Shown here: positions 2,115-40,021 of the stretch, piece after piece
How the letters are laid out: the number at the start of each line of letters is the position of its first letter
Position numbering within the stretch: the stretch's first letter is position 1
Assembly (NCBI GenBank): GCA_964574545.1
Contig: CAZNOC010000001.1
Coordinates: 3,245-67,244, forward strand
Direction of reading: 5' to 3'
Length of the DNA: 64,000 bases
DNA from: an uncultured Bifidobacteriaceae bacterium
Lineage (GTDB): Bacteria > Acidobacteriota > Vicinamibacteria > Vicinamibacterales > UBA2999
Translations under genes and position numbers: made by a program
Notes under the pieces: generated by a model
Databases searched by the model: none
Seen by the model: only the letters and a program-made list of their open reading frames with translations
What the model was told of the DNA's origin: nothing

Positions 2115-2753
2115 GTGAGAGGGCGAAGCTGTACCGTCGTGATTCTGGTGGCCAATCTCGCGGCCTGCGCGCCCGACCCGACGGCGCCGCACCCGTCGTA
2201 CGACCCTGTGACGCGCATGCTGGTCCGCCTCGATGTGGACCAGGACGGCGACGGACGCGTGGATGCGCGCACCTATCTCCTTGGCAACCGGCCGCTTCGC
2301 GCGGAACTCGACCTGGCAGGTACGGGGGTGATCGACCGGTGGGAGTACTTTGATGCGGCCGGAGCGCTGATCCTTGTGGGCACGTCCAGCTCTGGAGATG
2401 GCATCGAGGACACGTGGACGCACGCGGAGTCGCCGGAGGGCGACCGTCGCGTGGACCGATCCACCCTTCGCGACCGACGGATCGACCGCCGCGAGCACTA
2501 CAGGGATGGGGTGCTCATTCGCTCGGAGGAGGACGTCAACGGCGACGGATTGCTGGATAAGTGGGAGACGTTCGAAGGGGGAACACTTCGTGTGGCGGCG
2601 TTCGACACCACGTACGGCGCCGGCCGGCCGGACCGGCGCGTGATCTACGGCCCCGACGGGCAGTTCTCACGCGTTGAGGTGGACCTCGACGGCGACGGGG
2701 CGTTCGACTCCGTCGGCCAGGAGGCGGAACTCGAACCCGGACCCCGCCCATGA
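2115..2753 (+). CDS. lipoprotein with repeated DxDGDG-type (EF-hand/dockerin-like) putative Ca2+-binding loops
   Basis: Lipobox 'LAAC' after 'MRGRSCTVVILVAN'. Repeats are 'DQDGDGRVD', 'SSGDGIEDTW', 'DVNGDGLLDKWE' and 'DLDGDGAFD'. GTG start at 2115; its stop overlaps the next start (ATGA 2750-2753). Confidence 0.65.
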   Translation: MRGRSCTVVILVANLAACAPDPTAPHPSYDPVTRMLVRLDVDQDGDGRVDARTYLLGNRPLRAELDLAGTGVIDRWEYFDAAGALILVGTSSSGDGIEDTWTHAESPEGDRRVDRSTLRDRRIDRREHYRDGVLIRSEEDVNGDGLLDKWETFEGGTLRVAAFDTTYGAGRPDRRVIYGPDGQFSRVEVDLDGDGAFDSVGQEAELEPGPRP

Positions 2754-4027
2754 CCCTCTCCGCCTCGGAACTCGCCGCCATGACCGTGACCCCCTCGCCG
2801 ACCCGCTGGCGCGTTGCGGCCGTCCTGCTGCTGAGCGGCGCTCTGCTTGTCGCGCCCTCCGTCGTGCTCGCCCAGGGGCCGCTGACCGACGGGTTTGGTG
2901 ACTCCGAGTCGACGACGTTCGCTTTCCGGATCGGACCCTTGCTGGTGACGCCCGGACTGACGGTGAGGGAGATCGGCGTCGACACCAACGTCTTCGACGA
3001 GCCCGTGGATCCCAAGCGCGACTTCACGGCGACGGTGTCGCCCGACCTCCGGTTCTTCATGCGCGTGGGGCTGATCCGGTTCACGGCCTCGAGCGCGGCC
3101 GACTTCACGTACTACCGCGAGTACGCGGACGAGCGGGGGATCAGCCGGCAGCTCAGGGCGCGCACGGATCTGCTGCTCGGCCGCGTGCAGCCCTGGGTGG
3201 CGGCCGCGTTCGTTCAGACGCGGGATCGGCCCAACGCGGAACTCGACCGCCGGGCTCGCCGGCATGGGCTCGAGTACTCCGGCGGACTGAACCTCGAGAT
3301 TTCACCCAGGTCCAGCGTGTTCATCGCGACGGCCCGCACCGAGACGAAGTTCCGCGAGTTCGAGGTGTTCCAGGGCGTCGATCTCGCCACGGCCCTCAAC
3401 CGCGAGAGCGAGATCATTGACGGGGGACTGCGAACCAGTCTGACGCCCTTCACCACGCTCACGCTGAGGGGAGGCGTCCAGCGCGACCGCTTCGTCCACG
3501 CTCCCCTGCGGAACTCCGACAGCACCGTGGTGTCGGCACAACTCGATATCGCGCCCGATGCCATCATCCGCGGGCGCGCCCGGATCGGCTACCGCGAGTT
3601 CGACCCCGTGGATCCGTCGATGGAAGGCCATCGGGGCGTGGTCGGGCTCCTCAGCGTCGGCTTCAGCGCCCTCGGGGCGGCGCGGTTCGACGTGGCCGGG
3701 ACGCGCGATGTGGAGTACTCGTTCGAAGAGAGTGACGGGTATTTCGTCCAAACGGGCCTGGCTTTCACCTACACCCAGCGCCTCGGCGGTCCGTGGGACG
3801 TGCAGGGCCGCGCGGGGCGGAGCTGGCTCGACTATCGGTTGTCGGCGCGGTCTCCCGATGCCCGGAACGAACATGTGGACACGTATGCCGCTGGCGTTGG
3901 TTACAATTTGCAGGATCGGTCCCGTATCGGGCTGAGCTACGAGTACGCCGAACGGAGTGCGCCCACGCGGGCCGACCGCCGCTACGATCGGCGACGCATC
4001 TTCGGATCGTGGACCTACGAGTTCTGA
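2750..4027 (+). CDS. outer-membrane beta-barrel protein, candidate polysaccharide secretion porin (Wzp/EpsL-like)
   Basis: Signal peptide 'RWRVAAVLLLSGALLVAPSVVLAQG'. Alternating amphipathic strands throughout, with a C-terminal 'GSWTYEF' aromatic terminus typical of OMPs. Located immediately upstream of wza. Confidence 0.6.
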   Translation: MTLSASELAAMTVTPSPTRWRVAAVLLLSGALLVAPSVVLAQGPLTDGFGDSESTTFAFRIGPLLVTPGLTVREIGVDTNVFDEPVDPKRDFTATVSPDLRFFMRVGLIRFTASSAADFTYYREYADERGISRQLRARTDLLLGRVQPWVAAAFVQTRDRPNAELDRRARRHGLEYSGGLNLEISPRSSVFIATARTETKFREFEVFQGVDLATALNRESEIIDGGLRTSLTPFTTLTLRGGVQRDRFVHAPLRNSDSTVVSAQLDIAPDAIIRGRARIGYREFDPVDPSMEGHRGVVGLLSVGFSALGAARFDVAGTRDVEYSFEESDGYFVQTGLAFTYTQRLGGPWDVQGRAGRSWLDYRLSARSPDARNEHVDTYAAGVGYNLQDRSRIGLSYEYAERSAPTRADRRYDRRRIFGSWTYEF

Positions 4028-4055
4028 GGCGATTCCATTCGCCAGGCGAGAAAAC

Positions 4056-4913
4056 ATGACTAACCACCTGCTCGCCCTAGCGCTTGCTGGGGCCGTCGTC
4101 CAGGCGGCGGTCCCCCCACCGGTCCAGGTGCCCACGCCGCAACCGCCGGCGGCTGCGGAGGCCACCTACAAGATCGGCGCCCAGGACGTCGTGCGCGTCA
4201 CCGTGTACGACGAGCCCACGCTCAGCGGCTCGTTCCGGATCGATGCGGATGGCAGCATCAGCTACCCGATCCTGGGGCGGGTCGAGGTAGGAGGGTTGAC
4301 GGTCCGCGACGTCGAGGCGCGCCTCACCACCCTCCTGCAGGACGGGTACGTGCGCCGGCCCCAGGTGTCGGTCGAGATCGAGCAGTACCGCAGCCGCAGC
4401 ATCTTCATCATGGGGGAGGTGCGATCGCCCGGCAAGTACCCGCTCGCGGGCGAGGTCACGCTGCTCGAAGTCCTCGCCCTGGCCGGTTCCTTCACGGCCA
4501 CCGCGAGCAGCGACCTCATCGTGCTGCGCTCGCGCGATCCGGGACGCTCTGAGTCGCCCGCGCTGCCGGATGACGAATCGAGCGCCGAGATCCTGAGGAT
4601 CAACCGCGAGGATCTGCAGACGGGCCGTCTCTCCAGCAACCTGATCCTGCAGGACGGCGACACCATCTTCGTCCCCATCGTCGAGCGGTTCTACATCACC
4701 GGGCACGTGCGCACGCCGGGCTCGTACGTCCTCGAGAAGGGGATGACGGTGCAGCAGGCCATCGCCGTGGCCGGCGGTCTCACCGAGCGCGGGTCCAACC
4801 GGCGCATGAAGGTACGCCGCGAGATCAGGGGTGAGTTCAAGGAGGTGGGCATCGGGCTCACCGATCCGGTGCTGGCCGGGGACACGATCATGATCGCGCA
4901 GCGCTGGATCTGA
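4056..4913 (+). CDS. wza: polysaccharide export protein, OPX family (short Wza without C-terminal helix)
   Basis: The ATG at 4056 gives the signal peptide 'MTNHLLALALAGAVVQA'. Poly_export-like 'YKIGAQDVVRVTVYDEPTLSGSFRIDADGSISYPILGRVEVGGLTVRDVE' is followed by two SLBB-like segments. The protein ends right after 'GDTIMIAQRWI' (285 aa). Confidence 0.85.
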   Translation: MTNHLLALALAGAVVQAAVPPPVQVPTPQPPAAAEATYKIGAQDVVRVTVYDEPTLSGSFRIDADGSISYPILGRVEVGGLTVRDVEARLTTLLQDGYVRRPQVSVEIEQYRSRSIFIMGEVRSPGKYPLAGEVTLLEVLALAGSFTATASSDLIVLRSRDPGRSESPALPDDESSAEILRINREDLQTGRLSSNLILQDGDTIFVPIVERFYITGHVRTPGSYVLEKGMTVQQAIAVAGGLTERGSNRRMKVRREIRGEFKEVGIGLTDPVLAGDTIMIAQRWI

Positions 4914-4965: not shown

Positions 4966-6834
4966 ATGTGCGGCATTGCCGGCGTCGTGCGCTTCGCGGC
5001 GCCGGCGATCGACGACGAACTGGCCCCACGGCTGCTGGCCGAGCTGGCGCATCGCGGCCCCGACGGCGCCGGCATCCACCGGGATCCGTCCGGCCTCGCG
5101 TGCCTCGTGCACCGTCGCCTCGCGATCATCGATCCCGGCGAGGGCGGCCGTCAGCCGATGTCGTCGGCCGACGGCCGGTACTGGCTGGTCTTCAACGGAG
5201 AGATCTACAACCACCGCGAGCTGCGAGCGGCGCTGGGCGTGGCTGGGCCGTGGCGCTCCGCGAGCGACACCGAAGTGCTGCTGACTCTCGTCGCCCGCGA
5301 AGGGCCGGCCGCGCTCTCGCAACTCCGCGGCATGTTCGCATTCGCGCTTTGGGACGAGGCAGAGCGCACCTTGCTCCTGGCCCGTGACCGCTTCGGGATC
5401 AAGCCGTTGTACTGGTCGGCAACGGACGGACGGGTCGCGTTTGCCTCCGAGGTCGGCGCGCTCGTCCGGTCGGGTCTGGTGGCGCGCCGCCCAAGCGCGG
5501 CGGGCGTCACAGCCTACGTGCGATGGGCCAGCATCCCGCCGCCCCTCACGTGGGTCGACGGCGTGGCGGCGCTCGTGCCGGGCACGTGGCGCCGGTGGGA
5601 TCGGAATGGACACGAGGCGTCAGGACGGTTTGCGGACGTGCGGGACGCCTGGGTCACCACCACGGCGGCCCGGTCGCAGGGCCCTGGCGAGGTGCGGGCC
5701 GGCGTTGAAGCCGGCCTGGTCGATGCCGTACGAGCGCACCTGGTGGCGGACGTGCCGGTCGGGGTCTTCCTCTCGGGAGGACTCGACTCGGCCGCGATTG
5801 TCAAGGCGTGCCGTGCCGCTGGACCGTCGGTCATCCGGACATTCACCGTGGTGACCGATGAGAACGCCTCGTCGGAGGCGGCGCAGGCCGGCGCGATCGC
5901 TCGCGCGTACGAGACCGACCACCAGGTGCTCCACGTGGACGCATCGCGGGTGATCGATGACTGGCCCCGGATTCTCCGGCACCTGGACCAGCCCACGGCC
6001 GACGGTGTGAACACCTTCGTCGTGGCGGGTGCGGTCGCCGGCGCCGGCCTGAAGTGCGTGCTCTCCGGCGTGGGCGGCGATGAACTGCTCGGCGGGTACC
6101 CGTCGTTCGCCCGGCTTCCGGCCGCCGCGGCGCTGACCCGCGTGGCACCGCGCCTCGCCGCCCGCGCGGGCGGGCTGCTTGCGGCGCTGGCGCCGGCGCA
6201 TCAGGCCGCGCGGTGGCGTCATGCCTCGAGCAGCGGGGGAGACCTGCCGGAGTTGTACCGCGCGAGCCGCGGGTTCTTCATGCCTGGTGAGCTGACGCGA
6301 ATCGCCGGCCCCGCGCTCCTCGACAGGCCCGAGGTGGCCGCCGAGGTTGCGGCGATCGAAGCCGACATGCTCGCCGCCGCCGGGCCGGAGCGTGCCACGG
6401 CGTCCGTGGCGCGTCTCGAAACCTGCGGCTACCTCCGGCAGCAGCTGCTCCGGGACGTCGATGTGATGTCGATGGCCCACGGGGTGGAGGTACGTACGCC
6501 GTTCGTGGATCACGCGCTGCTGGACGTCGCCTGGCCGGCCCTTGGCGCCCATCCGGGCCTCGTGCGCGACAAGCAGGTGCTGCGCAGATGGCTGTCGGCT
6601 GATCTGCCCGCCGTGTCGCGTCGGCCAAAGCAGGGCTTTCTGCTCCCGTTCGATCGCTGGATCGACGGCCCGCTGCGCGACCTCGTGCGCGGGGGGCTGG
6701 ACGATCTCGCGGCGGACGGCTGGGTGGCGCGCGGCGTGCCCGACACGATCTGGGCGGCATGGCAGGCCCGCCGCCTGCACTGGACTCGCCCGTGGGGCCT
6801 GGCGGTCCTCGGCCGCTTCCTTGGTCATGGCTGA
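4966..6834 (+). CDS. asparagine synthase (glutamine-hydrolysing) family amidotransferase
   Basis: Starts 'MCGIAGV' (Ntn Cys2 nucleophile). PP-loop 'FLSGGLDSAAI'. 622 aa. Confidence 0.85.
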   Translation: MCGIAGVVRFAAPAIDDELAPRLLAELAHRGPDGAGIHRDPSGLACLVHRRLAIIDPGEGGRQPMSSADGRYWLVFNGEIYNHRELRAALGVAGPWRSASDTEVLLTLVAREGPAALSQLRGMFAFALWDEAERTLLLARDRFGIKPLYWSATDGRVAFASEVGALVRSGLVARRPSAAGVTAYVRWASIPPPLTWVDGVAALVPGTWRRWDRNGHEASGRFADVRDAWVTTTAARSQGPGEVRAGVEAGLVDAVRAHLVADVPVGVFLSGGLDSAAIVKACRAAGPSVIRTFTVVTDENASSEAAQAGAIARAYETDHQVLHVDASRVIDDWPRILRHLDQPTADGVNTFVVAGAVAGAGLKCVLSGVGGDELLGGYPSFARLPAAAALTRVAPRLAARAGGLLAALAPAHQAARWRHASSSGGDLPELYRASRGFFMPGELTRIAGPALLDRPEVAAEVAAIEADMLAAAGPERATASVARLETCGYLRQQLLRDVDVMSMAHGVEVRTPFVDHALLDVAWPALGAHPGLVRDKQVLRRWLSADLPAVSRRPKQGFLLPFDRWIDGPLRDLVRGGLDDLAADGWVARGVPDTIWAAWQARRLHWTRPWGLAVLGRFLGHG

Positions 6835-7654
6835 TCCGATCGTCACGGTGATCGACGCGGGTGTCCGCCTGCGCTCCGCCGCCGGGCGGGAGATGTGGGC
6901 GTTTCGCGAACTGCTGTACTTCCTCGTCTGGCGCGACCTCAAGGTACGGTACAAGCAAACCGCCCTGGGCGCCGCCTGGGCGCTCATCCAGCCGTTCGCG
7001 ACGATGGTCGTCTTCTCGCTGTTCTTCGGCCGGCTTGCGGGCGTGCCGTCGGACGGCGTCCCGTACCCGGTGTTCTCGTACGCCGCCCTCGTGCCCTGGA
7101 CCTACTTCTCCTCGGCGCTGGCCGGCGGCGCCAACTCCCTCATCGGCAGCCAGCACCTGATCTCGAAGGTGTACTTCCCGCGACTGCTCGTCCCGATGGC
7201 CGCCATCGTCACCCCCCTGGTCGATGCCGTGATCGCGCTCGGGCTGCTCGTGGTGCTGATGGCGTGGTTCGGCGTCCCGGCCGGGCTGCCGCTGCTGTGG
7301 CTGCCGGGCTTCGCCATCATTGCTGTGCTGACGGCCACGGCGGCGGGGCTCTGGCTGGCGGCGCTCAACGTGAAGTACCGCGATGTGCGGTACGTGATGC
7401 CGTTCCTGCTGCAGTTGTGGATGTTCATTACACCGGTCGCCTACCCGACCTCAATCGTGCCCGAGGCGTGGCGCGGGGTGTACGGGCTGAACCCGATGGT
7501 CACGGTGATCGAAGGGTTCCGCTGGTCGCTCATCGGCACGCCCGCGCCATCCCTCCCTATGGTCGCAGCGTCTTCGGTGGCCGTTGTCCTGCTGCTCGCG
7601 GGTGGGGTGTGGTACTTCCGCCGGATGGAATCGACCTTCGCGGATGTCATCTGA
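6827..7654 (+). CDS. wzm: ABC-2 type polysaccharide transporter permease
   Basis: The ATG at 6827 overlaps the asnB end by 8 nt. 'FRELLYFLVWRDLKVRYKQTALGAAWALIQPF' is the characteristic ABC2_membrane N-terminus. Six hydrophobic segments. Confidence 0.85.
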   Translation: MADPIVTVIDAGVRLRSAAGREMWAFRELLYFLVWRDLKVRYKQTALGAAWALIQPFATMVVFSLFFGRLAGVPSDGVPYPVFSYAALVPWTYFSSALAGGANSLIGSQHLISKVYFPRLLVPMAAIVTPLVDAVIALGLLVVLMAWFGVPAGLPLLWLPGFAIIAVLTATAAGLWLAALNVKYRDVRYVMPFLLQLWMFITPVAYPTSIVPEAWRGVYGLNPMVTVIEGFRWSLIGTPAPSLPMVAASSVAVVLLLAGGVWYFRRMESTFADVI

Positions 7655-7666
7655 GGTGGTAACGCG

Positions 7667-8917
7667 ATGAGCGCCGCGGCGGTCGCCGTTCAGGGCCTCG
7701 GCAAGCGCTACACGCTGGGCGCGGCGGCGCCACAGGGGCATCTGCGCGAGCGCCTGACCAGCGGAATGCGGGGATGGGCGCGCCGCCTCGGCGGCCGCTC
7801 TGCCCCGCGTGCCGCCGCGCCGACGATCTGGGCGCTGCGCGACGTATCGTTCGACGTCGCGCCCGGCGAAGTCGTCGGCATCATCGGCGGGAACGGCGCC
7901 GGCAAGTCCACGTTGCTCAAGATCCTGTCGCGCATCACGACGCCGACCGAGGGGCGTGCGGAGATCCGCGGTCGCGTCGGCTCGCTGCTCGAAGTCGGCA
8001 CGGGCTTTCATCCGGAGCTGACCGGGCGCGAGAACGTGTTCCTGAACGGTGCCATTCTCGGGATGGGGCGCGCCGAGATCCACCGCAAGTTCGACGCCAT
8101 CGTCGAGTTCGCCGAAGTCCCCACCTTCATCGATACGCCCGTGAAGTACTACTCGAGCGGGATGTATGTGCGGCTGGCGTTCGCGGTCGCCGCGCACCTC
8201 GAGCCGGAGATCCTGATCGTGGACGAGGTGCTCGCCGTCGGTGACGCCAAGTTCCAGAAGAAGTGCCTCGGCAAGATCGGCGAGGTCGCGCGCGGCGGGC
8301 GCACCGTGCTCTTCGTGAGCCACAACATGGCGGCCGTACAGCGGCTCTGCACGACGGCGGCGCTCCTCGAGCGTGGGCGCCTGGTCTACCGAGGCAGCCC
8401 GCGGACGGCCGTGGGACGCTACCTGTCCGGCGACAGCCGGCCGCGGTACGTCGCCGAGTACCGGACCGACGGCCCGCAGGTACTGCGGGCGGAGCTCCTC
8501 TCCGCGGAGGGCCATGCCCTCGCGCGCGCCATGACATCGGAACCCATCGTCGTCGAGATCGAGTACGTCGTGCCCGCGGGGTACCCCGATACCGCGGTGG
8601 GCATTGGGGTGCTGTCGGCCGATGGCGTGCCGATCTTCACGAGCGACCCGCGCGACGTGGGGGTGTCGCCACCCGGTGACGCCGGCGGCCACGTGGCGCG
8701 CATCACGATTCCGGCGGACGCCCTGCTCAGCGGGGACTTCCTCCTGGCCACGTGTTTGTGGAACGCGGCCGAGGTCATCGAACTGCAGGAGCCCGCACTG
8801 TCGTTCACCGTGGATCAGGGCCCGTCTGCCGTCTACGACTCGGCGCTCGAGCGGAAGGGGTTCGTCCAGCAGCCCTGCCGCTGGGAGTTCGGCGCCGTGC
8901 CAAAGGAGGCCTCCTGA
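7667..8917 (+). CDS. wzt: polysaccharide ABC transporter ATP-binding protein with C-terminal extension (Wzt_C-like)
   Basis: Walker A 'GGNGAGKST', signature 'YSSGM', Walker B 'ILIVDE'. About 165 extra C-terminal residues look beta-rich ('IVVEIEYVVPAG...VARITIPADAL...LSFTV'). GAGGTGG RBS at 7653-7659. Confidence 0.85.
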   Translation: MSAAAVAVQGLGKRYTLGAAAPQGHLRERLTSGMRGWARRLGGRSAPRAAAPTIWALRDVSFDVAPGEVVGIIGGNGAGKSTLLKILSRITTPTEGRAEIRGRVGSLLEVGTGFHPELTGRENVFLNGAILGMGRAEIHRKFDAIVEFAEVPTFIDTPVKYYSSGMYVRLAFAVAAHLEPEILIVDEVLAVGDAKFQKKCLGKIGEVARGGRTVLFVSHNMAAVQRLCTTAALLERGRLVYRGSPRTAVGRYLSGDSRPRYVAEYRTDGPQVLRAELLSAEGHALARAMTSEPIVVEIEYVVPAGYPDTAVGIGVLSADGVPIFTSDPRDVGVSPPGDAGGHVARITIPADALLSGDFLLATCLWNAAEVIELQEPALSFTVDQGPSAVYDSALERKGFVQQPCRWEFGAVPKEAS

Positions 8918-9585
8918 CGCCGAATCAGACACTCGGCGCGCTCGTGCGACACCACGCCATCAGGCATGAGGCGTTCCGTCGGGCGTTCCGGTTCCTGCGC
9001 CACGAAGGCGTCGAGGGAGACGTGCTCGAATTCGGGACGTTCGCGGGCACCAGCCTCGCGCTCCTCTCCCATGCGTCGGCGTACATCGACGACCGTCCGC
9101 GCCGCGTGGCGGGCTTCGATTCGTTCGAGGGGCTGCCGGCCACGGCGGATCCGCACCCGGAGTGGGGGACCGGACGCTTTGCGCACAACGAATGGTGGCA
9201 CCCGACACTGGCCAGCGGCGCCCCCGTGACGCCGGACGCGGTGCGGCACCTCTTCACCGCGTGCGACCTCCCGGCACCGGTGCTCTATGCCGGGTGGTTC
9301 GAGGAGACGGTCCCACGCGCGGTGGCGGCGCATCCCCGCGTGGCCCTGCTCCACGTGGACTGCGATCTTCACGAACCGGCGGCGTACGTGCTCGGCGCCG
9401 TGGCGCCGGTCCTGCAAGATGGCGCCATCGTGCTCTTCGACGACTGGTTCCTCTATGGCGGCAATCCCGCGCGTGGCGAAGCGCGGGCCTGCGCCGAGTT
9501 CCTTGCGGGGCACCCGCACTGGGGTGCCACCGACTACGGAGCGTACGGGCCTTTCTCCAAGGCCTTCATCTTCTACCGACGATGA
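8914..9585 (+). CDS. TylF/MycF-like class I SAM-dependent methyltransferase (paralog 1)
   Basis: 'EGVEGDVLEFGTFAGTS', 'HVDCDLHEP' and 'LFDDW' motifs. The start is uncertain: a CTG at 8914 sits 4 nt after AAGGAGG (8903-8909) and overlaps the wzt stop, or GTG at 8944. The track's 8752 start would overlap wzt heavily. Confidence 0.7.
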   Translation: MTPNQTLGALVRHHAIRHEAFRRAFRFLRHEGVEGDVLEFGTFAGTSLALLSHASAYIDDRPRRVAGFDSFEGLPATADPHPEWGTGRFAHNEWWHPTLASGAPVTPDAVRHLFTACDLPAPVLYAGWFEETVPRAVAAHPRVALLHVDCDLHEPAAYVLGAVAPVLQDGAIVLFDDWFLYGGNPARGEARACAEFLAGHPHWGATDYGAYGPFSKAFIFYRR

Positions 9586-9589
9586 CCCC

Positions 9590-10321
9590 ATGACCATGCC
9601 CTTCCTGACGCCACGCCTGCGCGCCATCGGCCGCGCCGTCCTCGGCCCCCGCCCCCTGCCGTTGATCGACCGGCTGGCCAGGCGCGATCGCAGATGGGCG
9701 ACGATTGTCGACTCGCTGGAGTACGTGAACTTCGAAGGGGTGGAGGGCGACATCGTCGAATGCGGGGTGTTCGGAGGGCTGAGCCTCGCCCTGTTCGCGC
9801 GGGCCGCGACGTTCGACCCGAAGGGGGCCGGGCGCCGCATTGTCGGCGTCGACACCTTCGAGGGGCTGCCGGCGTCCGAAGAGGTCCACCCAGGCTGGAA
9901 GGAGGGGGACTGCGCGGAGGTGCACGGATGGCATCCGCTCGCGAAGGCGGGGGACCCCGTCACCGTCGACACGACGCGCACGCTCTTCGCGCAGTGCGGG
10001 CTCGCCGCGCCGGTCCTCCACGAGGGACGCTTCGATCAGGTGCTGCCGCGGATCGTGCCGGGCCTCCACTCGGCGGTGGCCCTGCTGCACATCGACTGCG
10101 ACCTCTACGAGAGCACTCGCGACGTGCTGGACGGGATGGCGCCGGCCCTGCAGGACGGGACTGTCCTGCTCTTCGACGACTGGTTCCACTACAAGGGGCA
10201 CCCCGGACGCGGCGAGGCGCGCGCCTTCCACGAGTTTCTCGCCGCGCATCCCGAGTGGCAGGCGGTGCACTGGCGCTCCTACGCCACGTTCTGCAACGCG
10301 TTCATCCTGGTGAAGCGGTGA
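9590..10321 (+). CDS. TylF/MycF-like class I SAM-dependent methyltransferase (paralog 2)
   Basis: ATG at 9590. 'EGVEGDIVECGVFGGLS', 'HIDCDLYEST' and 'LFDDWFHY'. Collinear with the preceding gene over its whole length. Confidence 0.75.
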   Translation: MTMPFLTPRLRAIGRAVLGPRPLPLIDRLARRDRRWATIVDSLEYVNFEGVEGDIVECGVFGGLSLALFARAATFDPKGAGRRIVGVDTFEGLPASEEVHPGWKEGDCAEVHGWHPLAKAGDPVTVDTTRTLFAQCGLAAPVLHEGRFDQVLPRIVPGLHSAVALLHIDCDLYESTRDVLDGMAPALQDGTVLLFDDWFHYKGHPGRGEARAFHEFLAAHPEWQAVHWRSYATFCNAFILVKR

Positions 10322-11583
10322 CGGTCGCGCACCTCGGGCCTCCGCTCGGGCGGACGGGAGGGCCTGGCGGGTACCTCGCGCAGCTGGCGGGCGCTATTGC
10401 GCATCACGGTGACGGCGGACACACGGTGCTCTTGCCCGCGCCGGCGCCGCCCCGTACCGCGGCGTCGGCCTCGCCGTTCGCGCCCGTGCGGCAGGCGGTG
10501 CGGCGGGTGAGACGCACGGTGCTCGGCGCGCCGTCCTACTACCGTCCCTCATCCTCGGAGCTTCTGCGATCGGACGGCGAGATCGGGCGCATGATCTCCC
10601 AGGCCTGGCGGGAAGTGGTGGCCGAAGTCGAACCCGCGCTGGTCCAGGCGATCGAGGCACACGCGGACGTGATCTTCGCGCACGACGCCCCGAGCGCGCA
10701 GGCCGCGCTCGAACGCCGCGCACCGGGGCAGCAGGTCTGGCTGATGCTGCACAACCCGATGCCTCTGGCGCTCTACCTGGCGTGGTGCTGGGGTGTGCCG
10801 GATCGCGCGTGGGACGAAGTGGCCTCGTACCCGGACGTCCAGCGGTGGACGGCGGACGAATGCGGCGTGATCGAGCGCGTGGACCGTGTCTTCATCCCCT
10901 GTGCCGAGGCCGTCGATGAACTTGTCCGAGCGGCGCCGTCGTTCGGCCGCGTGCTCTCGCGCGCCGAGTTCCTGCTGACAGGCGCCGCGGGTCCGGTCGC
11001 CCGCCGCGCCTTGGATGGCGGACGCCGGTCGTGGGGCCTGCCTGTGGACCGTCCCGTCGGACTGTTCCTGGGCAACGCGCAGCCGTATCGCGGGCTCGAC
11101 GTGTTGCTGGCGGGGCTCGAGCGTCTCCCTCAGCGCGGGACGCCCGCGGGCGTGGTGGCCGTCGCCGGGTGCCCCGTCGACCAGCTCCCGATCCGGCCAC
11201 GGCTGCGGGCGCTCGGCCACGTGGCCGATGTCGGAGGCCTGCTGGCGGCGGTGGACTTCGTCATCAACGTCAACCGCTTCAGCCTGTTCGACCTGTCCAC
11301 CATCGAGGCGCTCGAGGCCGGCCGTCCCTTGCTCCTGCACGAAACCGGCGGTAATCGGACGTTTGGGGCGCTCGGCGCGGGGGCCATGATGTTGCCGTCG
11401 CTCGACCCGCAGACCATCGCCACAGGCCTGATGGACATGTTCGTCCAGACACCCGAGGCGCTCGCGCGCCTTGGCGCCGAATCTCGCGCCTGCTACGAAC
11501 GCCATCTGACGCCGAGGCACCTGCACGACCGACACCTCGCCTTGTACAACTCGGCCGGCGCACGCGCGGAGGTCGGACGATGA
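10318..11583 (+). CDS. glycosyltransferase (GT-B fold, GT4-like)
   Basis: The GTG at 10318 overlaps the upstream stop (GTGA). N-terminal 'VAHLGPPLGRTGGPGGYL' and C-terminal 'GLFLGNAQPYRGLDVLL...STIEALEAGRPLL'. Confidence 0.6.
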   Translation: MTVAHLGPPLGRTGGPGGYLAQLAGAIAHHGDGGHTVLLPAPAPPRTAASASPFAPVRQAVRRVRRTVLGAPSYYRPSSSELLRSDGEIGRMISQAWREVVAEVEPALVQAIEAHADVIFAHDAPSAQAALERRAPGQQVWLMLHNPMPLALYLAWCWGVPDRAWDEVASYPDVQRWTADECGVIERVDRVFIPCAEAVDELVRAAPSFGRVLSRAEFLLTGAAGPVARRALDGGRRSWGLPVDRPVGLFLGNAQPYRGLDVLLAGLERLPQRGTPAGVVAVAGCPVDQLPIRPRLRALGHVADVGGLLAAVDFVINVNRFSLFDLSTIEALEAGRPLLLHETGGNRTFGALGAGAMMLPSLDPQTIATGLMDMFVQTPEALARLGAESRACYERHLTPRHLHDRHLALYNSAGARAEVGR

Positions 11584-13007
11584 GACACACGGATGTGCTC
11601 GTCGTCGGCCTTGGTCCTACGGGTCTCGGCGCCGCCTGGCGTCTCGACGCGCTCGGCCACGACGACTGGCTCGTGTACGAGGCGGAGAATGTGGCCGGTG
11701 GCCTTGCCGGATCCGTCGTTGACGAGCATGGCTTCACGTGGGACTTCGGGGGCCACGTCCAGTTCAGCCACTACGAGTACTTCGACCGCCTGATGGACGA
11801 CCTGCTCGGCATCGACGGCTGGTACCACCACGATCGGGAGTCATGGGTCTGGGTGCGCGACCGCTTCGTGCCGTATCCGTTTCAACTGAACGTGCACCGC
11901 CTGCCGGACGCCGACACGACGCGCGCCATCGCCGGGCTGGTGAGTGCCGCGCGCCGGGCGGCACACGGCGGACCGCCGCCCTCGGACTTCGGGGCCTGGA
12001 TCGACGCCGCTTTCGGCGCCGGCATCGCGGGGATCTTCATGCGGCCGTACAACACGAAGGTCTGGGCGCGTGAGCCCGAGCGCATGGCCTGGGACTGGAT
12101 CGGCGACCGCGTGGCGCTGGTCGATCTGCCGCGCGTCGTGGAGAACGTGCGGCTCAATCGAGACGATGTGTCGTGGGGGCCGAACAACCAATTCCGCTTT
12201 CCGCGTCGTGGCGGCACCGGTGCCATCTGGCGGGCCCTGTCAGACAGGCTCGCATCGAGGTGGCCGGACCGCCTGCTCTTCGGGCGCAGGCTGGTGTCCC
12301 TGGATACGGCGCGCAGGCGAGCGGTCTTCTCCGACGGGGAGGCGATCGGCTACGAGCGGCTGCTCAGCACGATCGCGATCGATGAACTCACACGGCTGAG
12401 CGACCTTGCCCCGAACCTGACCCCCGCGCTCGCCGACCTCGAGTACTCGTCCACGCACGTGGTTGGTGTCGGCCTGCGCGGACGGGCACCCGACACCCTG
12501 GCCGGCAAGTGCTGGATGTACTTCCCCGAGGACAACTGCCCGTTCTATCGCGTCACCCACTTCTCCCACTACTCGCCGCACAACGTGGCGGACCCGTCCA
12601 CGCAGTGGTCGCTGATGGCCGAGGTGTCAGAGTCACCGTACCGGCCGCTGCGGCGGCCGGACGTCGTGTCCGACACGCTGGACGGGATGCTCGCGACGGG
12701 GCTCGTCGCCGACCGTGCCGACATCCACCATACGTGGCACCGGCGTCTGGAGCGGGGCTACCCGGTGCCCTCGCTCAATCGCGACCGCGCGCTGGCCACG
12801 CTGCTGCCGGCCTTCGAAGCCCGCAGCGTCCTGTCGCGCGGCCGGTTCGGCGCGTGGAAGTACGAAGTGTCGAACCAGGACCACAGCTTCGCGCAGGGCG
12901 TCGAGGCCGTGGACGCGTGGCTGTCCGGCGCCGTCGAGGAAACCCTGCACCATCCGGAGCGCGTGAACGCCCGGCGACCTGCGCCCCCGAGGGCCGCACG
13001 CGTATGA
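11580..13007 (+). CDS. UDP-galactopyranose mutase, eukaryote-type long form (flavoenzyme)
   Basis: 'VVGLGPTGLGAA' FAD fingerprint. 'GGHVQFSHYEYFD', 'VPYPFQLN', 'FMRPYNTKVWA', 'FRFPRRGGTG', 'KCWMYFPEDNCPFYRVTHFSHYSP' and 'SRGRFGAWKYEVSNQDHSFAQGVEAVD' are collinear with my recollection of fungal/kinetoplastid UGM. Confidence 0.7.
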   Translation: MRHTDVLVVGLGPTGLGAAWRLDALGHDDWLVYEAENVAGGLAGSVVDEHGFTWDFGGHVQFSHYEYFDRLMDDLLGIDGWYHHDRESWVWVRDRFVPYPFQLNVHRLPDADTTRAIAGLVSAARRAAHGGPPPSDFGAWIDAAFGAGIAGIFMRPYNTKVWAREPERMAWDWIGDRVALVDLPRVVENVRLNRDDVSWGPNNQFRFPRRGGTGAIWRALSDRLASRWPDRLLFGRRLVSLDTARRRAVFSDGEAIGYERLLSTIAIDELTRLSDLAPNLTPALADLEYSSTHVVGVGLRGRAPDTLAGKCWMYFPEDNCPFYRVTHFSHYSPHNVADPSTQWSLMAEVSESPYRPLRRPDVVSDTLDGMLATGLVADRADIHHTWHRRLERGYPVPSLNRDRALATLLPAFEARSVLSRGRFGAWKYEVSNQDHSFAQGVEAVDAWLSGAVEETLHHPERVNARRPAPPRAARV

Positions 13008-13843
13008 GCGCGTGGCGCCTGCTGCGGTCGCTGGCCTCTCGCGCGAAGCGGCGCCTGCGCCCGACGCCCGCCGAGGCCGCCTGGCGGCAGATCGTCGCCG
13101 CCGGGGCGCGGGCCCCGCGGTACTCGGCCGGCCGGCTGTCGCTCTGCGGCCTCGACATCGAGTACCCCGATGCGCTCAGCCTGGCGCCGCAGTGGCACGA
13201 TCTGTTCGTCCGCCAGACGCTCGCCTTCACCTCCGCCACCGACGCGCCCCGTGTCCTCGACTGCGGCGCCAACGTCGGCCTGGCGACGCTCGCGGTGAAG
13301 CGCGCGTATCCGCGTGCCCGGGTCACGGCATTCGAGGCCGACCCGGCGATCGCGGCGGTCTGCGCACGGAACCTGGCGCGCAACGGCGCGGGCGACGTCC
13401 AGGTGGTCGCGGCGGCGGTCTGGCGCGAAGCCGGCGAGGTGGCCTTCCGGCAGGAGGGCTCCGACTCCGGCGCGATTGAAGGGGTCGCCGCCGACACCCG
13501 GGGGACGTCCGTGACGGTACCGGCCGTGCGCCTGCGTGACTTCGTGGTCCGCGAGCCCGTTGACCTCTTGAAGCTCGACGTCGAGGGCGCCGAGTGGGTG
13601 TTGCTCGAAGACCTCGAGGGCGCACTCGACCACGTGCGGGCGCTGCACGTCGAGGTGCACGACTTCGACCCGGCCACGCGCCTGCTGCCCCGGTGCCTGG
13701 CCTTGCTCGAGCGCGCGCGCTTCACGTACGCGCTCGACGACTTCGCGGTTGCCGGCTGGCGTCCCGAGGGGACCCGCCGCGGGCCGTTCCGTCTGGCAGT
13801 GCCATCCTGGATCGTCCTCGTGCGCGCGTGGCGGGACGCATGA
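13004..13843 (+). CDS. FkbM-family methyltransferase
   Basis: The ATG at 13004 overlaps the upstream stop (ATGA). 'VLDCGANVGLATL' and 'LLKLDVEGAEWVLL' are FkbM hallmarks. Confidence 0.8.
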   Translation: MSAWRLLRSLASRAKRRLRPTPAEAAWRQIVAAGARAPRYSAGRLSLCGLDIEYPDALSLAPQWHDLFVRQTLAFTSATDAPRVLDCGANVGLATLAVKRAYPRARVTAFEADPAIAAVCARNLARNGAGDVQVVAAAVWREAGEVAFRQEGSDSGAIEGVAADTRGTSVTVPAVRLRDFVVREPVDLLKLDVEGAEWVLLEDLEGALDHVRALHVEVHDFDPATRLLPRCLALLERARFTYALDDFAVAGWRPEGTRRGPFRLAVPSWIVLVRAWRDA

Positions 13844-23092: not shown

Positions 23093-24417
23093 GCGCCGTC
23101 GTGCGGTCGCTGCTCGTCATCAGCCCGCACTTCCCGCCGGACGCCACGGCTGGCGCCCACCGGGTGCGGGTGCTCGCGCCGTACCTCGAGGCGCACGGGT
23201 GGCGGCCGACCGTGCTCACGGTGGATCCACGGGACTACGAGGGCACACTCGACGAGGAACTGGCCGCGCGCGTCCCGGCGTCGCTCGACGTCGTGCGGTG
23301 TCGCGCCTGGTCGCCGCGAGGGACGCGGCGTCTGGGACTCGGCGATCTCGGACTGCGCGCGCTCCACGGCCTGTGGCGGGAGAGCCGTGCGCAGGCGGCG
23401 CGCCACCGTGTTGATGCGGTCTACATCACGACGTATCCCATTTATCCGGCGCTCATCGGTCCGCGGTTCGCACGGCGGTTCGGCGTGCCCTTCGTGCTGG
23501 ATCTGCAGGACCCGTGGGTCGGCGCGTGGGGCGCGACGGTCGGCGGCGGGGGAGGCGGCGAGGTCGATCTCAAGAGCCGGGTCAGCCGTGAAGTGGCGAC
23601 GCGGCTCGAGCGGTACGTCGTGCCGCGCGCGTCGGGGCTGACGGGGGTCTCGACCGTCCTGCTCGATGAGCTCGTCACGCGCTATCCGGCGATGACCGCG
23701 AAGCCCAGAGCCGTGCTGCCCATCGGCATCGACCCCGGCGACATGGCCTGGGCGCGCACTCATGAGAAGCTCGCGCCGTGGCTGCCCCCTCGCGACGGGC
23801 GGCTGCACGTCTGCTACGTCGGGACCGCCCTGCCCCTTGGACGGGACGTGCTGGCCGCGGTTTTCGCCGCGGTGGCGCATATGCGCGCCACCGACCCGGC
23901 ACGCGCCGACCGGATTCGCCTGCACTTCATCGGCACCAGCAATGAAGCGCGCCCCGACGCCGCGCCGCGCGTGACGGCCCTCGCCACCCGGGCCGGCATT
24001 GCCGATCTCGTCCGCGAGCACGCGCCGCGCGTCCCGTTCTTCGATGCCCTGCGGGTGCTCGACCGCGCCAGCGTGGTCCTGCTGGCCGGCACCAGTGAAG
24101 CACGCTACACGGCGAGCAAGCTGCACGGTGCGCTCGCCGCCGGCCGTCCGCTGCTCGCCGTGTTCCACGCGTCGAGTGACGTGGCCCGGACCCTGGCGCC
24201 TCTCGCCGCCGGCGCGCCGGGCGTACGCCTGCTGACCTACGACGAGGGGCAACCCGTCGAGACGCTCGTGGACGCGATTGCGGCCACGCTGACCCAGTGG
24301 ATGGATGCCCCGCCCGCGGCACCCGCCGGACTTGCCGATCTGGACGCCGCGCTGGCGCCGAAGCTTGCGGGCCGGCTCGCACACCTGCTCAACCGGGTTG
24401 TGGAGGCGCGTGGCTGA
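23083..24417 (+). CDS. glycosyltransferase (GT4-like N-terminal domain)
   Basis: GTG at 23083 (alternative 23101). 'LLVISPHFPPDATAGAHRVRVLAPYLEAHGW'. GT-B-like length (444 aa). The C-terminal motif is atypical. Confidence 0.55.
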   Translation: MGVGAVVRSLLVISPHFPPDATAGAHRVRVLAPYLEAHGWRPTVLTVDPRDYEGTLDEELAARVPASLDVVRCRAWSPRGTRRLGLGDLGLRALHGLWRESRAQAARHRVDAVYITTYPIYPALIGPRFARRFGVPFVLDLQDPWVGAWGATVGGGGGGEVDLKSRVSREVATRLERYVVPRASGLTGVSTVLLDELVTRYPAMTAKPRAVLPIGIDPGDMAWARTHEKLAPWLPPRDGRLHVCYVGTALPLGRDVLAAVFAAVAHMRATDPARADRIRLHFIGTSNEARPDAAPRVTALATRAGIADLVREHAPRVPFFDALRVLDRASVVLLAGTSEARYTASKLHGALAAGRPLLAVFHASSDVARTLAPLAAGAPGVRLLTYDEGQPVETLVDAIAATLTQWMDAPPAAPAGLADLDAALAPKLAGRLAHLLNRVVEARG

Positions 24418-26833
24418 GCGCGTCCACCGCGTCACGTTCGTCCTGACCCACCCGGCGCAGTACATGGCGCCGTGGTTCCGTCACATGGCTGCGATGCGTG
24501 ACGATGTCGCGGTGCACGTGCTCTACGGGACGCGTCCCACGCCGGCCGCGCAGGCCGCGGGGTTTGGCGGCGCGTTCGAATGGGACGTACCTCTCCTCGA
24601 CGGGTACACCTCCACGGTGCTGGCGCCGGAGCTGGCGGAGGCCGACCTCGGAGCCGAACGGTTCTCGCGCATGGACGTGCCGCACCTGGACGAGGCGATC
24701 CGCGAGACGCGTCCGGACGCGGTGGTGGTACCGGGGTGGCACGCGGCGTTGTATCTCCACGCGATCGACGTGTGCCGCGCGCGCGGAATCCCCGCGATCT
24801 ATCGCGGTGACTCGACCCTCGGCTCTGGACCGCGCGGCTGGCGCAGGCCCTTCTGGCGGTGGCACACGCGCCGCCGGCTCGCCCGCTACGACGCCTGGCT
24901 CGCGGTGGGCACGCGCGCCCGAGACTACCTCGCGGGTTTCGGCGTGCCCGATCCCCTCGTCTTCGCGTCCCCGCACGCCGTTGACAACGAGCGGTTCCGG
25001 GAAGCGGCGGCGCGTGCGCGCCGCCCGGAACACCGCGCACGCCTCCGCGCGGCGTTCGGCATCCCGGAGGGAGCGCGTGTCGCGCTGTTCGCCGGCAAGC
25101 TCAGCCCGCACAAACGCCCTCAGGATCTGATTCTCGCCGCGGCGCAGGCGGCCCGCCCGATCCACCTCCTCTTTGCTGGCGCCGGGCCAGACGAGCAGGC
25201 GTGCCGCGTGCTGGTGGCGGCCACCGGCGTCCCGGCATCCTTCGCCGGCTTCCTCAACCAGTCGCGCATGCCCGAGGCGTTTGCGGCGGCCGACTGCCTG
25301 GTGCTGCCGAGCGAAAGCGAGACCTGGGGCCTCGTCGTCAACGAGGCGCTGGCGTCCGGCGTGCCGTGCGTCGTGTCCGACGGCGTTGGCTGCGCGCCGG
25401 ACCTCGTCGACGGCCGCCTGACCGGCCGCGTCGTCCCGCGTGGAGACATCGAGGCGCTGGCGCGCGCGCTCGACGCGACGATCGACCGCGGCGTCCCGGG
25501 CTCCGCCACCGCGGAGGCGTGCCGGACGCGTGCCGCCAGTCACTCGTTCGGCCAGGCCACTGGCGGTCTCGTGGCGGCGTGCGCCAGGCTGCGACTGCGC
25601 GCCGAGCACGCGGGACGGAGCCTGCAGCGCCGGCCGCGCATCATCGCCTGCTGCGGCAACATGGTGATTCCGGGCGGTCTCGAGCGCATGACGTTCAAGG
25701 TACTGGAGACCTGCCATGCGCATGGGGCAGCCGTCCACGCCATCGTCAACGGATGGGAGAGCACCCGCATCGTCGGCCTGGCCGAGGAGGCCGGGGCCTC
25801 GTGGACCACCGGCCGCTACTGGCAGCCGTTTCGTCGTCCCGCGTCGGCGGCGGCCCTTGTCGCCATGGCCATCGACGTCGCGCGCACGAGTGGGGGCCTG
25901 CTCCGCGACGCCCGCCACTTCCGTCCGACCCATGTGCTCGTTCCTGACTGGGTCGCGGTCCTGCGCAACCTGCCAGCGCTCGCGTGGCTGCGTCTTCGTG
26001 GCCGCCTGGTCGTGATGCGGCTGGGCAACGCCCCTGGCGAGGGCCGGCTCCACGCTGCGCTGTGGCGGTGGGGTGTGGCGCCTGTGGTGGACCGGTTCGT
26101 CGCCAATTCGCGGTTCATCGCCGCCCAGGTGGCGGGGACGGGCATCGACGCCTCGCGTATCGACGTCGTCCACAACGCCCCCTCGCGCGCGGCGCTGGAC
26201 GCACCTCAGGGTCCCGCGGACCGGACGCGCGTCGTCTTCGTCGGCCAGGTCATTCCGCAGAAGGGTGTCGACCTGCTGCTCGAAGCGGTGGCGCTCGTGG
26301 CGGCGCGCGGCATCGCGGTGACGCTCGAGATCATCGGCGATATGGACGGCTGGGAGTCGCCGTCCTACGGCGGGCATCGCGCGGGGCTCCGTGCGCGGGC
26401 GGGGGCGCCGGACCTGGCGGGGCGCGTCGTCTTCGCCGGCTATCGCGAGGACGTGATCGCGCGGCTGTCGGCCGCGGCCGTGCACGCGTGTCCCTCCCGG
26501 CCGGAACAGCGCGAAGGGCTGGCCGGCACGGTGCTGGAAGCGAAGCTGGCGGGCGTGCCCTCGGTCGTCACCGCGACGGGGTCGTTGCCGGAACTCATCA
26601 CACACGGTATCGACGGCTGGATCGCGCCAGACGCCACGGCGGAGGCCATCGCCGACGGGCTGGCCCACTTCCTGTCCGACCCGGCCGTGCGGGATCGAGC
26701 CGGCGCGGAGGCCAGCCGCTCGCTGGATCGCTTCAGCCCCGCGCGCTTCGCCGCCGAGTGGCTGCGGGTCTTCGGGGTGAAGGCGGAATCGCCCGCGGCG
26801 GCGTCCGCGACGCCGCGGGAGCGGGTGTCGTGA
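24410..26833 (+). CDS. bimodular glycosyltransferase (two GT4-type modules in one polypeptide)
   Basis: The GTG at 24410 overlaps the upstream end by 8 nt. It has two independent E-x7-E cores, 'SETWGLVVNEALASG' (first half) and 'REGLAGTVLEAKLAG' (second half). Each follows a 'FAGKL/FVGQV...KG(V/ )D' donor-binding segment. 807 aa. Confidence 0.75.
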   Translation: MAERVHRVTFVLTHPAQYMAPWFRHMAAMRDDVAVHVLYGTRPTPAAQAAGFGGAFEWDVPLLDGYTSTVLAPELAEADLGAERFSRMDVPHLDEAIRETRPDAVVVPGWHAALYLHAIDVCRARGIPAIYRGDSTLGSGPRGWRRPFWRWHTRRRLARYDAWLAVGTRARDYLAGFGVPDPLVFASPHAVDNERFREAAARARRPEHRARLRAAFGIPEGARVALFAGKLSPHKRPQDLILAAAQAARPIHLLFAGAGPDEQACRVLVAATGVPASFAGFLNQSRMPEAFAAADCLVLPSESETWGLVVNEALASGVPCVVSDGVGCAPDLVDGRLTGRVVPRGDIEALARALDATIDRGVPGSATAEACRTRAASHSFGQATGGLVAACARLRLRAEHAGRSLQRRPRIIACCGNMVIPGGLERMTFKVLETCHAHGAAVHAIVNGWESTRIVGLAEEAGASWTTGRYWQPFRRPASAAALVAMAIDVARTSGGLLRDARHFRPTHVLVPDWVAVLRNLPALAWLRLRGRLVVMRLGNAPGEGRLHAALWRWGVAPVVDRFVANSRFIAAQVAGTGIDASRIDVVHNAPSRAALDAPQGPADRTRVVFVGQVIPQKGVDLLLEAVALVAARGIAVTLEIIGDMDGWESPSYGGHRAGLRARAGAPDLAGRVVFAGYREDVIARLSAAAVHACPSRPEQREGLAGTVLEAKLAGVPSVVTATGSLPELITHGIDGWIAPDATAEAIADGLAHFLSDPAVRDRAGAEASRSLDRFSPARFAAEWLRVFGVKAESPAAASATPRERVS

Positions 26834-40015: not shown

Positions 40016-40021
40016 GAGGCG

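Follow-up and report, generated by a model that had tools for sequence, protein, structure and literature searches.

We analysed a stretch of 64,000 nucleotides (hereafter, the window; contig CAZNOC010000001.1, positions 3,245 to 67,244) from an uncultured soil bacterium assigned to the Vicinamibacterales, Acidobacteriota, with a focus on wzt, the ATPase gene of a glycan exporter, and on the two methyltransferase genes that follow it, MT1 and MT2. The C-terminal part of Wzt is predicted to have the fold of known carbohydrate-binding domains, both methyltransferases belong to the TylF class of sugar O-methyltransferases, and across related loci the type of the binding domain, and not that of the ATPase half, tracks the number of TylF genes. 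The reading that we tentatively prefer, and consider possible although somewhat short of probable, is that MT2 and the accessory MT1 O-methylate the terminal sugar of the exported polysaccharide, and that the Wzt binding domain, which co-varies with these genes, recognises the resulting mono- or di-O-methyl end. The genes belong to an ATP-binding cassette (ABC) transporter-dependent glycan cluster of about 40 kb (from about 2.7 to 42.4 kb), in which polysaccharide genes are tightly packed in a long run on the + strand; the window has a G+C content of about 70%. Identical copies of its proteins are recorded from a 115-kb contig (NCBI/ENA/Logan) and from the sequencing run SRR3310977. Of the relatives that carry a name, the closest are metagenome-derived genomes of Vicinamibacterales and other Acidobacteriota. 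The central features are the following (aa, amino acids):

6827 to 7654, + strand: wzm, ABC-2 type permease of the glycan exporter, 275 aa (PF01061 ABC2_membrane, E 2.9e-21)
7667 to 8422, + strand: nucleotide-binding domain of wzt, residues 1-252 (PF00005, E 2.9e-22)
8423 to 8917, + strand: predicted C-terminal carbohydrate-binding domain of wzt, residues 253-416 and the stop codon
8944 to 9585, + strand: MT1, accessory TylF-class sugar O-methyltransferase, 213 aa from GTG 8944 (223 aa from the alternative CTG 8914)
9590 to 10321, + strand: MT2, core TylF-class sugar O-methyltransferase, 243 aa from ATG 9590 (PF05711, 65 bits)

The complete wzt gene thus spans 7667-8917 and encodes 416 aa. The gene order is wzm-wzt-MT1-MT2-GT_a, with a spacing of 4 nt between MT1 and MT2; GT_a is a glycosyltransferase (GT) gene described below. 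A Wzt/TagH-type ABC domain and an adjoining Wzm permease are both present. The permease, for which weak NCBIfam matches to Wzm/KpsM permeases were obtained and which is found upstream of wzt in related loci, too, lies inside the range covered by a preliminary description of this DNA, although it was not mentioned there. Residues 53-252 of Wzt align with the Wzt protein of Aquifex aeolicus (6amx, 6m96, 7k2t, 8dku) with E values of 5e-64 to about 1e-63.

The preliminary description noted about 165 residues beyond the ABC domain, and we count 164. In a comparison to the Pfam model Wzt_C (PF14524), residues 265-384 score 22.9 bits (E 9.3e-5), which is below the cut-off of 30.4 bits; PF14524 is also listed for most full-length homologs at 58-73% identity, as a weak or faint match wherever a mark is given. 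A profile of the tail family found no match among the sequences in the PDB; therefore, only the fold comparison and the weak Pfam match tie the tail to known binding domains. Residues 250-416 were modelled with AlphaFold2 (AF2) using 22 homologs; the model is all-beta and confident, with a predicted local distance difference test (pLDDT) score of 85.5. When this model was compared to the PDB using Foldseek, ranks 1 to 17 were all taken by Wzt carbohydrate-binding domains (E 2e-6 to 5e-5), including 8dky, 6o14, 7k2t, 8dl0, and the domains of Escherichia coli O9a (2r5o) and Raoultella O12 (5hno, 5hnp), whereas the first match to any other protein followed at E 1e-3, after a 20-fold gap in E value. 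The top match, 8dky, is the A. aeolicus domain bound to 3-O-methyl-D-mannose (E 1.9e-6, template modelling score 0.74, root-mean-square deviation 1.8 A). The model thus indicates that the Wzt tail has a Wzt_C-type binding-domain fold, and it shows the beta-sandwich whose absence would, according to the preliminary description, have refuted its proposal. In the monomer model, a low-confidence linker (residues 143-149) precedes a terminal strand (156-161); such an arrangement would permit strand swapping. In the binding-domain family, W116 and W157 are invariant or almost so.

Turning to the methyltransferases, the description of MT1 and MT2 as collinear paralogs of the TylF/MycF type holds: they are 50% identical over 202 residues (BLASTP E 7e-67), and they score 57.7 bits (MT1) and 65.0 bits (MT2) against PF05711, for which the gathering cut-off is 23. 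The shared motifs EGVEGD(V/I)(L/V)E(F/C)G, H(V/I)DCDL and LFDDWF were found in both proteins, with the individual forms LEFGTFAG, HVDCDL and FDDW in MT1, and VECGVFGG, HIDCDL and FDDW in MT2. The S-adenosylmethionine (SAM) glycine loop and the D-x-D...DD motifs of both enzymes align with those of CalS11, SpnH and MycF; among 30 family members, E57, G59, G63, D169, D171, D196 and D197 are invariant. By analogy with NovP and MycF, the D-x-D and DD motifs presumably hold the metal-binding and catalytic residues. By sequence, the best solved relative of both enzymes is CalS11, a thymidine diphosphate (TDP)-rhamnose 3'-O-methyltransferase (E 5e-13 for MT2 and 6e-12 for MT1), followed by SpnH, MycF and NovP. 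By structure, the AF2 model of MT2 (pLDDT 92) has SpnH, NovP, MycF and CalS11 as its top Foldseek matches (E 2e-12 to 5e-9) and also matches MeT1, an M. hassiacum enzyme that adds a methyl group to the 1-OH at the reducing end of a polysaccharide (PMC9883506). NCBIfam contains no model that matches MT1 or MT2. The ratio of nonsynonymous to synonymous substitution rates (dN/dS) is 0.11 and 0.23 for MT1, compared to its counterparts in loci L009 and L008, respectively (L numbers are our labels for loci, and P numbers for homologous proteins), and 0.15-0.21 for MT2; these values are approximate, with dS near saturation, and they are indicative of purifying selection on both genes. Given the intact motifs, the fold of the MT2 model and the purifying selection, MT1 and MT2 are very probably active sugar O-methyltransferases.

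The linkage of these enzymes to the binding domain can be counted from either side. Among the loci of the close methyltransferase family (GTDB species genomes with readable upstream sequence), a Wzt with this binding domain stands directly upstream in 19 of 22, whereas any Wzt within 7 kb was detected for only 2 of the 57 distant TylF relatives in other phyla; it should be noted that this methyltransferase-first count is biased by how the loci were chosen. Conversely, we collected loci starting from the binding domain, by a metagenome scan with binding-domain-specific patterns and three Wzt look-ups, and kept those with at least 900 nt of downstream sequence. In this sample of 63 loci, no TylF gene follows the binding domain in 17, one follows in 37, and two in 9; thus, 46 of the 63 loci carry at least one. 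Co-variation was then measured in 46 dereplicated loci with a complete Wzt, using a nearest-neighbour permutation. The nearest neighbour of a binding domain shares the TylF count in 76% of the cases, compared to 44% under permutation (p ~3e-4), whereas for the ATPase halves of the same proteins the corresponding values are 52% and 43% (p 0.16). In a mirror-tree comparison, the partial correlation between binding domain and methyltransferase given the ATPase half is 0.62, and the reverse is 0.44; all mirror-tree correlations are high and confounded by shared ancestry and adjacency, so these values are weak evidence. The association emerges only across many loci. The binding domains of two-methyltransferase loci do not form one clade: that of the window is 75% identical to the domain of L009, a tandem locus, but also 70% identical to that of L003, a single-copy locus, and those of L008 and L013 fall among single-copy loci.

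The two halves of this Wzt differ in their closest relatives. The ATPase half is 91% identical to that of L010 and 87% to that of L002, whereas the binding domain is only 45-48% identical to those of the same two loci (45% for L010); for L003, the identities are 73% in the ATPase half and 70% in the binding domain. This difference implies a recombination boundary between the halves, and hence a mosaic gene. Because the binding-domain type, and not the ATPase half, tracks the TylF count, the comparison indicates that the binding domain and the methyltransferase complement travel as one cassette with its boundary inside wzt. Such a pattern is what functional coupling predicts, but a recombination hotspot combined with adjacency would yield it as well.

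The preliminary description took the gene pair for a duplication that a phylogeny could date. The tree does not fit a simple duplication within this genome; instead, separate subfamilies recur in the same order elsewhere. In the closest syntenic relatives, L002, L003, L004 and L006, only one TylF gene is present, overlapping the wzt stop at its 5' end, within a block of AsnB-like, wzm, wzt, TylF methyltransferase, GT, FAD protein, FkbM methyltransferase and GT4 genes. MT2 is the ortholog of this single copy (72-75% identical to that of L002, L003 and L010). The nearest relatives of MT1 are P0242 (78%), P0243 (61%) and P0244 (59%), and in L008, L009, a 6.25-kb contig and the reference genome L013, its relatives likewise stand first. 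In a neighbour-joining tree, the MT1 type is a separate clade of seven members at the base of the acidobacterial family, and a recent tandem duplication was rejected, as MT1 groups with genes that are the first copy in other contigs rather than with MT2. Clustering of the 93 TylF copies from all fetched loci yielded three subfamilies: a core subfamily of 76 copies, which stand alone, second in pairs of the type seen in the window, or first in the other kind of pair; the MT1-type subfamily, placed before the core gene in 4 loci; and a third subfamily of 11 copies, placed after the core gene in 10 loci. Since the accessory subfamilies sit on either side of the core gene, a second TylF gene has been gained at least twice. 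The core subfamily, represented by MT2, is the one that directly follows this Wzt subfamily in Vicinamibacterales and other Acidobacteriota, and MT1 represents an older accessory subfamily.

Taken as a mechanism, the proposed reading would run as follows. Wzm/Wzt would export a lipid-linked polysaccharide whose synthesis is finished in the cytoplasm, and the C-terminal domain of Wzt would most likely license export by binding the modified non-reducing end. The two wzt-coupled genes would encode stand-alone, metal-dependent TylF/MycF-class sugar O-methyltransferases, with MT2 as the core enzyme of this locus type and MT1 as an accessory paralog from an older, separate subfamily. The terminal sugar, probably a 6-deoxyhexose or a mannose-type sugar, would be methylated at one or two hydroxyls; the mono- or di-O-methyl end would block elongation and at the same time be the epitope for the binding domain. 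Chain length would then be set by the competition of elongation and capping, without a ruler. In this scheme, the terminal position of the methyl groups, their recognition by the binding domain and any effect on chain length are what we infer from the gene content and its comparison.

The alternatives draw on other genes of the cluster, starting with the three that directly follow MT2:

10318 to 11583, + strand: GT_a, GT4-like glycosyltransferase, 421 aa (PF13692, E 1.9e-7)
11580 to 13007, + strand: flavin adenine dinucleotide/nicotinamide adenine dinucleotide (FAD/NAD)-binding amine-oxidase-like protein, 475 aa (PF01593 and PF13450)
13004 to 13843, + strand: FkbM-family methyltransferase (PF05050, E 8.8e-15), an alternative candidate for the cap enzyme

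The start of GT_a overlaps the MT2 stop, and in most related loci this gene is directly 3' of the methyltransferase gene or genes. The amine-oxidase-like protein, a PRK07208-like 'hypothetical', comes after GT_a in nearly all related loci and is better conserved than the adjoining GT. Apart from the TylF pair, the cluster encodes five methyltransferases (two FkbM, two Methyltransf_11/23 and one Methyltransf_24, seven in all with the pair), a carbamoyltransferase, an acetyltransferase, a deacetylase, two AsnB-like amidotransferases, at least 12 glycosyltransferases, including a dual-GT protein (24305-26833), a polytopic membrane protein, a Wzy_C/WaaL-like protein, a Wzc-like tyrosine kinase, an EpsL-like outer-membrane barrel and a Wza-like protein. 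Some of these genes are of the Wzy-dependent or PEP-CTERM exopolysaccharide type and frame the locus at 2750-4913 and 38633-42382, namely those for the EpsL-like barrel, the Wza-like exporter, the Wzc-like tyrosine kinase/chain-length determinant and the Wzy_C (WaaL-like) protein; matches of the framing proteins to the NCBIfam models of the PEP-CTERM/Xrt system are all below threshold. The longest-open reading frame (ORF) listings overlap at 25984-28677 (the second AsnB-like ORF and the dual-GT gene) and at 32677-35516 (the carbamoyltransferase and a Methyltransf_11 ORF); the true starts of these overlapping high-GC ORFs are well 3' of the first listed start codon.

Two further observations concern the content of this locus family. 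In L090 (contig_5648, 764 kb), which was compared to positions 826-46908 of the window, the flanks are the same (extracytoplasmic function (ECF) sigma factor, DUF6249, wzm, wzt and PQQ_2 beta-propeller genes), and a single gene for a 2-oxoglutarate (2OG)-Fe(II) oxygenase stands where the window has a post-wzt glycan block of about 33 kb. The glycan block behaves as a large insertion or deletion between conserved flanks, which leaves an orphan Wzm/Wzt with binding domain in L090. A full rmlABCD-like gene set for the dTDP-rhamnose pathway follows the first GT4 gene in L003 (15426-18692) and L004 (14025-17279), and no rml genes were seen among the scanned ORFs of the window, which cover most of its first 47 kb; the gene content of these relatives hints at rhamnose-type sugars in this locus family.

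Several observations weigh against a capping role of the TylF pair. The 17 of 63 loci (27%) that have this binding domain and no TylF gene downstream, among them L092, L168 and L172 with GT_a directly after wzt, mean that the binding domain needs no TylF product in general. The binding domain of the window is 70% identical to that of a one-methyltransferase locus (L003), and the co-variation may also be explained by the recombination boundary inside wzt plus adjacency, rather than by function. The five additional methyltransferases of the cluster compete for the role, and an FkbM gene is kept in all 8 TylF-less glycan loci; the TylF genes are far from the sole cap candidates. A complementarity of TylF and FkbM genes was considered and dropped: none of the 50 glycan loci lacks both, compared to about 1.8 expected by chance, which is not significant. 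The substrate of CalS11, the solved protein nearest in sequence, is a nucleotide sugar and not a polymer end. The characterised terminators also carry a ruler: WbdD is a large protein that combines a methyltransferase of another class, with or without a kinase, and a coiled coil that sets chain length (PMC3482155, PMC11231755), whereas MT1 and MT2 are TylF-class enzymes of 213-243 aa with neither coiled coil nor kinase. They are filled by the methyltransferase fold, and thus too small for such a ruler; no kinase domain was found in either, only the TylF and Methyltransf_24 families being matched, and a crude, unvalidated home-made heptad scan, which is weak evidence, detected no coiled-coil ruler in MT1, MT2 or any other cluster protein. 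Measurement of chain length in the manner of WbdD is thus not indicated. The proposal of the preliminary description, that one or both enzymes may add the methyl cap read by this Wzt, is partly supported: the tail fold, the sugar-methyltransferase class and the comparative tie to the binding domain stand in its favour, whereas a simple local duplication and a WbdD-style ruler find no support.

A serious competitor, which we consider less probable than capping but still plausible, is that the TylF enzymes provide a variable decoration of internal repeat residues, resulting in serotype-like diversity, with the cap coming from FkbM, another modifier or a terminating GT. The polymorphic TylF copy number (0, 1 and 2 in 17, 37 and 9 loci) and the two accessory subfamilies at different positions are typical of decoration cassettes, the locus L092 has an otherwise identical architecture and keeps the binding domain without any TylF gene, and both the FkbM gene kept in all 8 TylF-less glycan loci and the wealth of modifiers in the cluster (seven methyltransferases, a carbamoyltransferase, an acetyltransferase and a deacetylase) would suit it well. 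It does less to explain why the TylF site lies right after the binding-domain end of wzt, translationally coupled and strongly conserved, why the binding-domain type and not the ATPase type tracks the TylF number, and why 11 TylF-bearing loci have no FkbM gene in at least 4.4 kb of the downstream sequence at hand.

It is unlikely, in our judgement, that MT1 and MT2 act on a nucleotide sugar, as CalS11 does on TDP-rhamnose, and that GT_a then adds the nucleoside diphosphate (NDP)-O-methyl or di-O-methyl sugar once, as a terminator. This would fit the rank of CalS11 as the best solved relative of both enzymes (E 5e-13 and 6e-12), GT_a as an invariable neighbour that overlaps the MT2 stop, and the rmlABCD genes inside the homologous clusters L003 and L004; however, SpnH, MycF, NovP and MeT1 methylate sugars that are already attached, the scanned ORFs of the window (most of the first 47 kb) include no rml genes, and L092, L168 and L172 keep GT_a without TylF. 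A decaying or unexpressed MT1, with only MT2 functional, seems very improbable. The MT1 orthologs start at a GTG or ATG that overlaps the wzt TGA stop, and the same position is a CTG (8914) here; AAGGAGG is found at 8903-8909, ahead of this CTG. The next in-frame start, GTG 8944, agrees with the N-terminus of the homolog P0247, and the N-termini of homologs favour it, although the MT1 start is ambiguous as judged from the sequence, so this choice is uncertain. The CTG, the public gene call that cuts MT1 to 187 aa (P0241, from GTG 9022), and the DCDLYE motif, which reads DCDLHE in MT1, could all be taken as signs of decay. The public call is probably too short, because it cuts into the conserved EGVEGD/glycine-loop motif; moreover, the reading frame of MT1 is intact, with a G+C content at third codon positions (GC3) of 0.85, dN/dS is low (0.11 and 0.23), MT1 has preserved the glycine loop and every Asp motif, GTG 8944 fits the N-terminus of P0247, and at least four other contigs carry a member of the MT1 subfamily at this position.

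Cap-dependent export by Wzt is understood from a handful of Proteobacteria and from Aquifex, where large coiled-coil proteins act as terminators, except that no terminator appears to have been assigned in A. aeolicus. The scheme of termination-coupled ABC export is itself known; what would be new here is the enzyme family, in an understudied phylum. If TylF-class enzymes write the cap, a new enzyme family joins the chain terminators, a testable candidate class becomes available for methyl-capped glycans whose capping enzyme is unknown, and soil Acidobacteriota would diversify their surface glycans by exchanging a cassette of binding domain and methyltransferase. Gene content that follows the binding domain and not the ATPase half is a signature of such a cassette that can be checked elsewhere. 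If, conversely, the enzymes do no more than decorate internal residues, the locus is a polysaccharide cluster of an ordinary kind, albeit heavily modified. A bolder extension, which we regard as rather improbable but worth stating, is that binding domains and stand-alone TylF cassettes, with 0, 1 or 2 genes from three subfamilies, constitute a ruler-less, modular 'methyl code' that is read by co-exchanged binding-domain variants, so that swaps create new, mutually exclusive export specificities; the TylF family would then be a class of O-polysaccharide chain terminators so far unrecognised. The literature that we searched contains no report that links TylF-family enzymes to the capping of O-polysaccharides.

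Among natural-product enzymes, TylF, MycF, NovP, SpnH and CalS11, together with MeT1, share PF05711, the motifs and, as judged from the MT2 model, the fold with MT1 and MT2, at only 20-26% identity. The natural-product TylF enzymes sit in polyketide or aminocoumarin clusters, whereas the pair described here sits in a glycan export locus. In natural-product pathways, paralogous TylF-class enzymes methylate different hydroxyls of one deoxysugar.

With regard to export, the WzmWzt system of A. aeolicus (8dky, 6o14, 7k2t, 8dku) has the same ATPase-domain family and the same binding-domain fold, with only about 16% sequence identity to the binding domain of the window. Its cap is an O-methyl group on a mannose or rhamnose end, a chemistry that a TylF-class enzyme could make; the 3-O-methyl-mannose and 3-O-methyl-rhamnose caps are bound specifically by the Wzt binding domain (PMC9445017), in a pocket lined by Leu300, Thr346, Ala348 and Trp362, and the accessible text of that paper appears not to assign the capping enzyme. 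In E. coli O8/O9a (Klebsiella pneumoniae O5/O3), the Wzt binding domain recognises a non-reducing end that is capped by methyl or methyl-phosphate, and the terminator gene lies in linkage with wzm-wzt and with a multi-domain polymerase GT, to which the dual-GT protein (24305-26833) would correspond here. Genetic linkage to wzm-wzt and to glycosyltransferases, as known for WbdD-type terminators, is present in the window, with overlapping or 4-nt junctions, and is kept in relatives. The transport-termination-elongation ('TET') operon of Pseudomonas syringae, wzm-wzt-methyltransferase-GT, has the same order, and its variable region begins at wzt, which resembles the mosaicism of ATPase half and binding domain described above; the P. 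syringae methyltransferase is annotated as SAM-dependent only and was named wbdD by analogy (PMC7820976). In the common polysaccharide antigen (CPA) system of Pseudomonas aeruginosa, two small methyltransferases without a ruler, PA5457 and PA5459, are described as similar to WbdD of E. coli O8 and are partly redundant, and the double knockout abolishes the polymer (PMC3560663). The P. syringae and P. aeruginosa enzymes are not described as TylF-class, the host here belongs to the Acidobacteriota, and the locus of the window, unlike theirs, also has Wza-, Wzc- and EpsL-like export genes. By analogy, the CPA system of P. aeruginosa, with its pair of small enzymes, would be a better functional parallel for MT1 and MT2 than WbdD.

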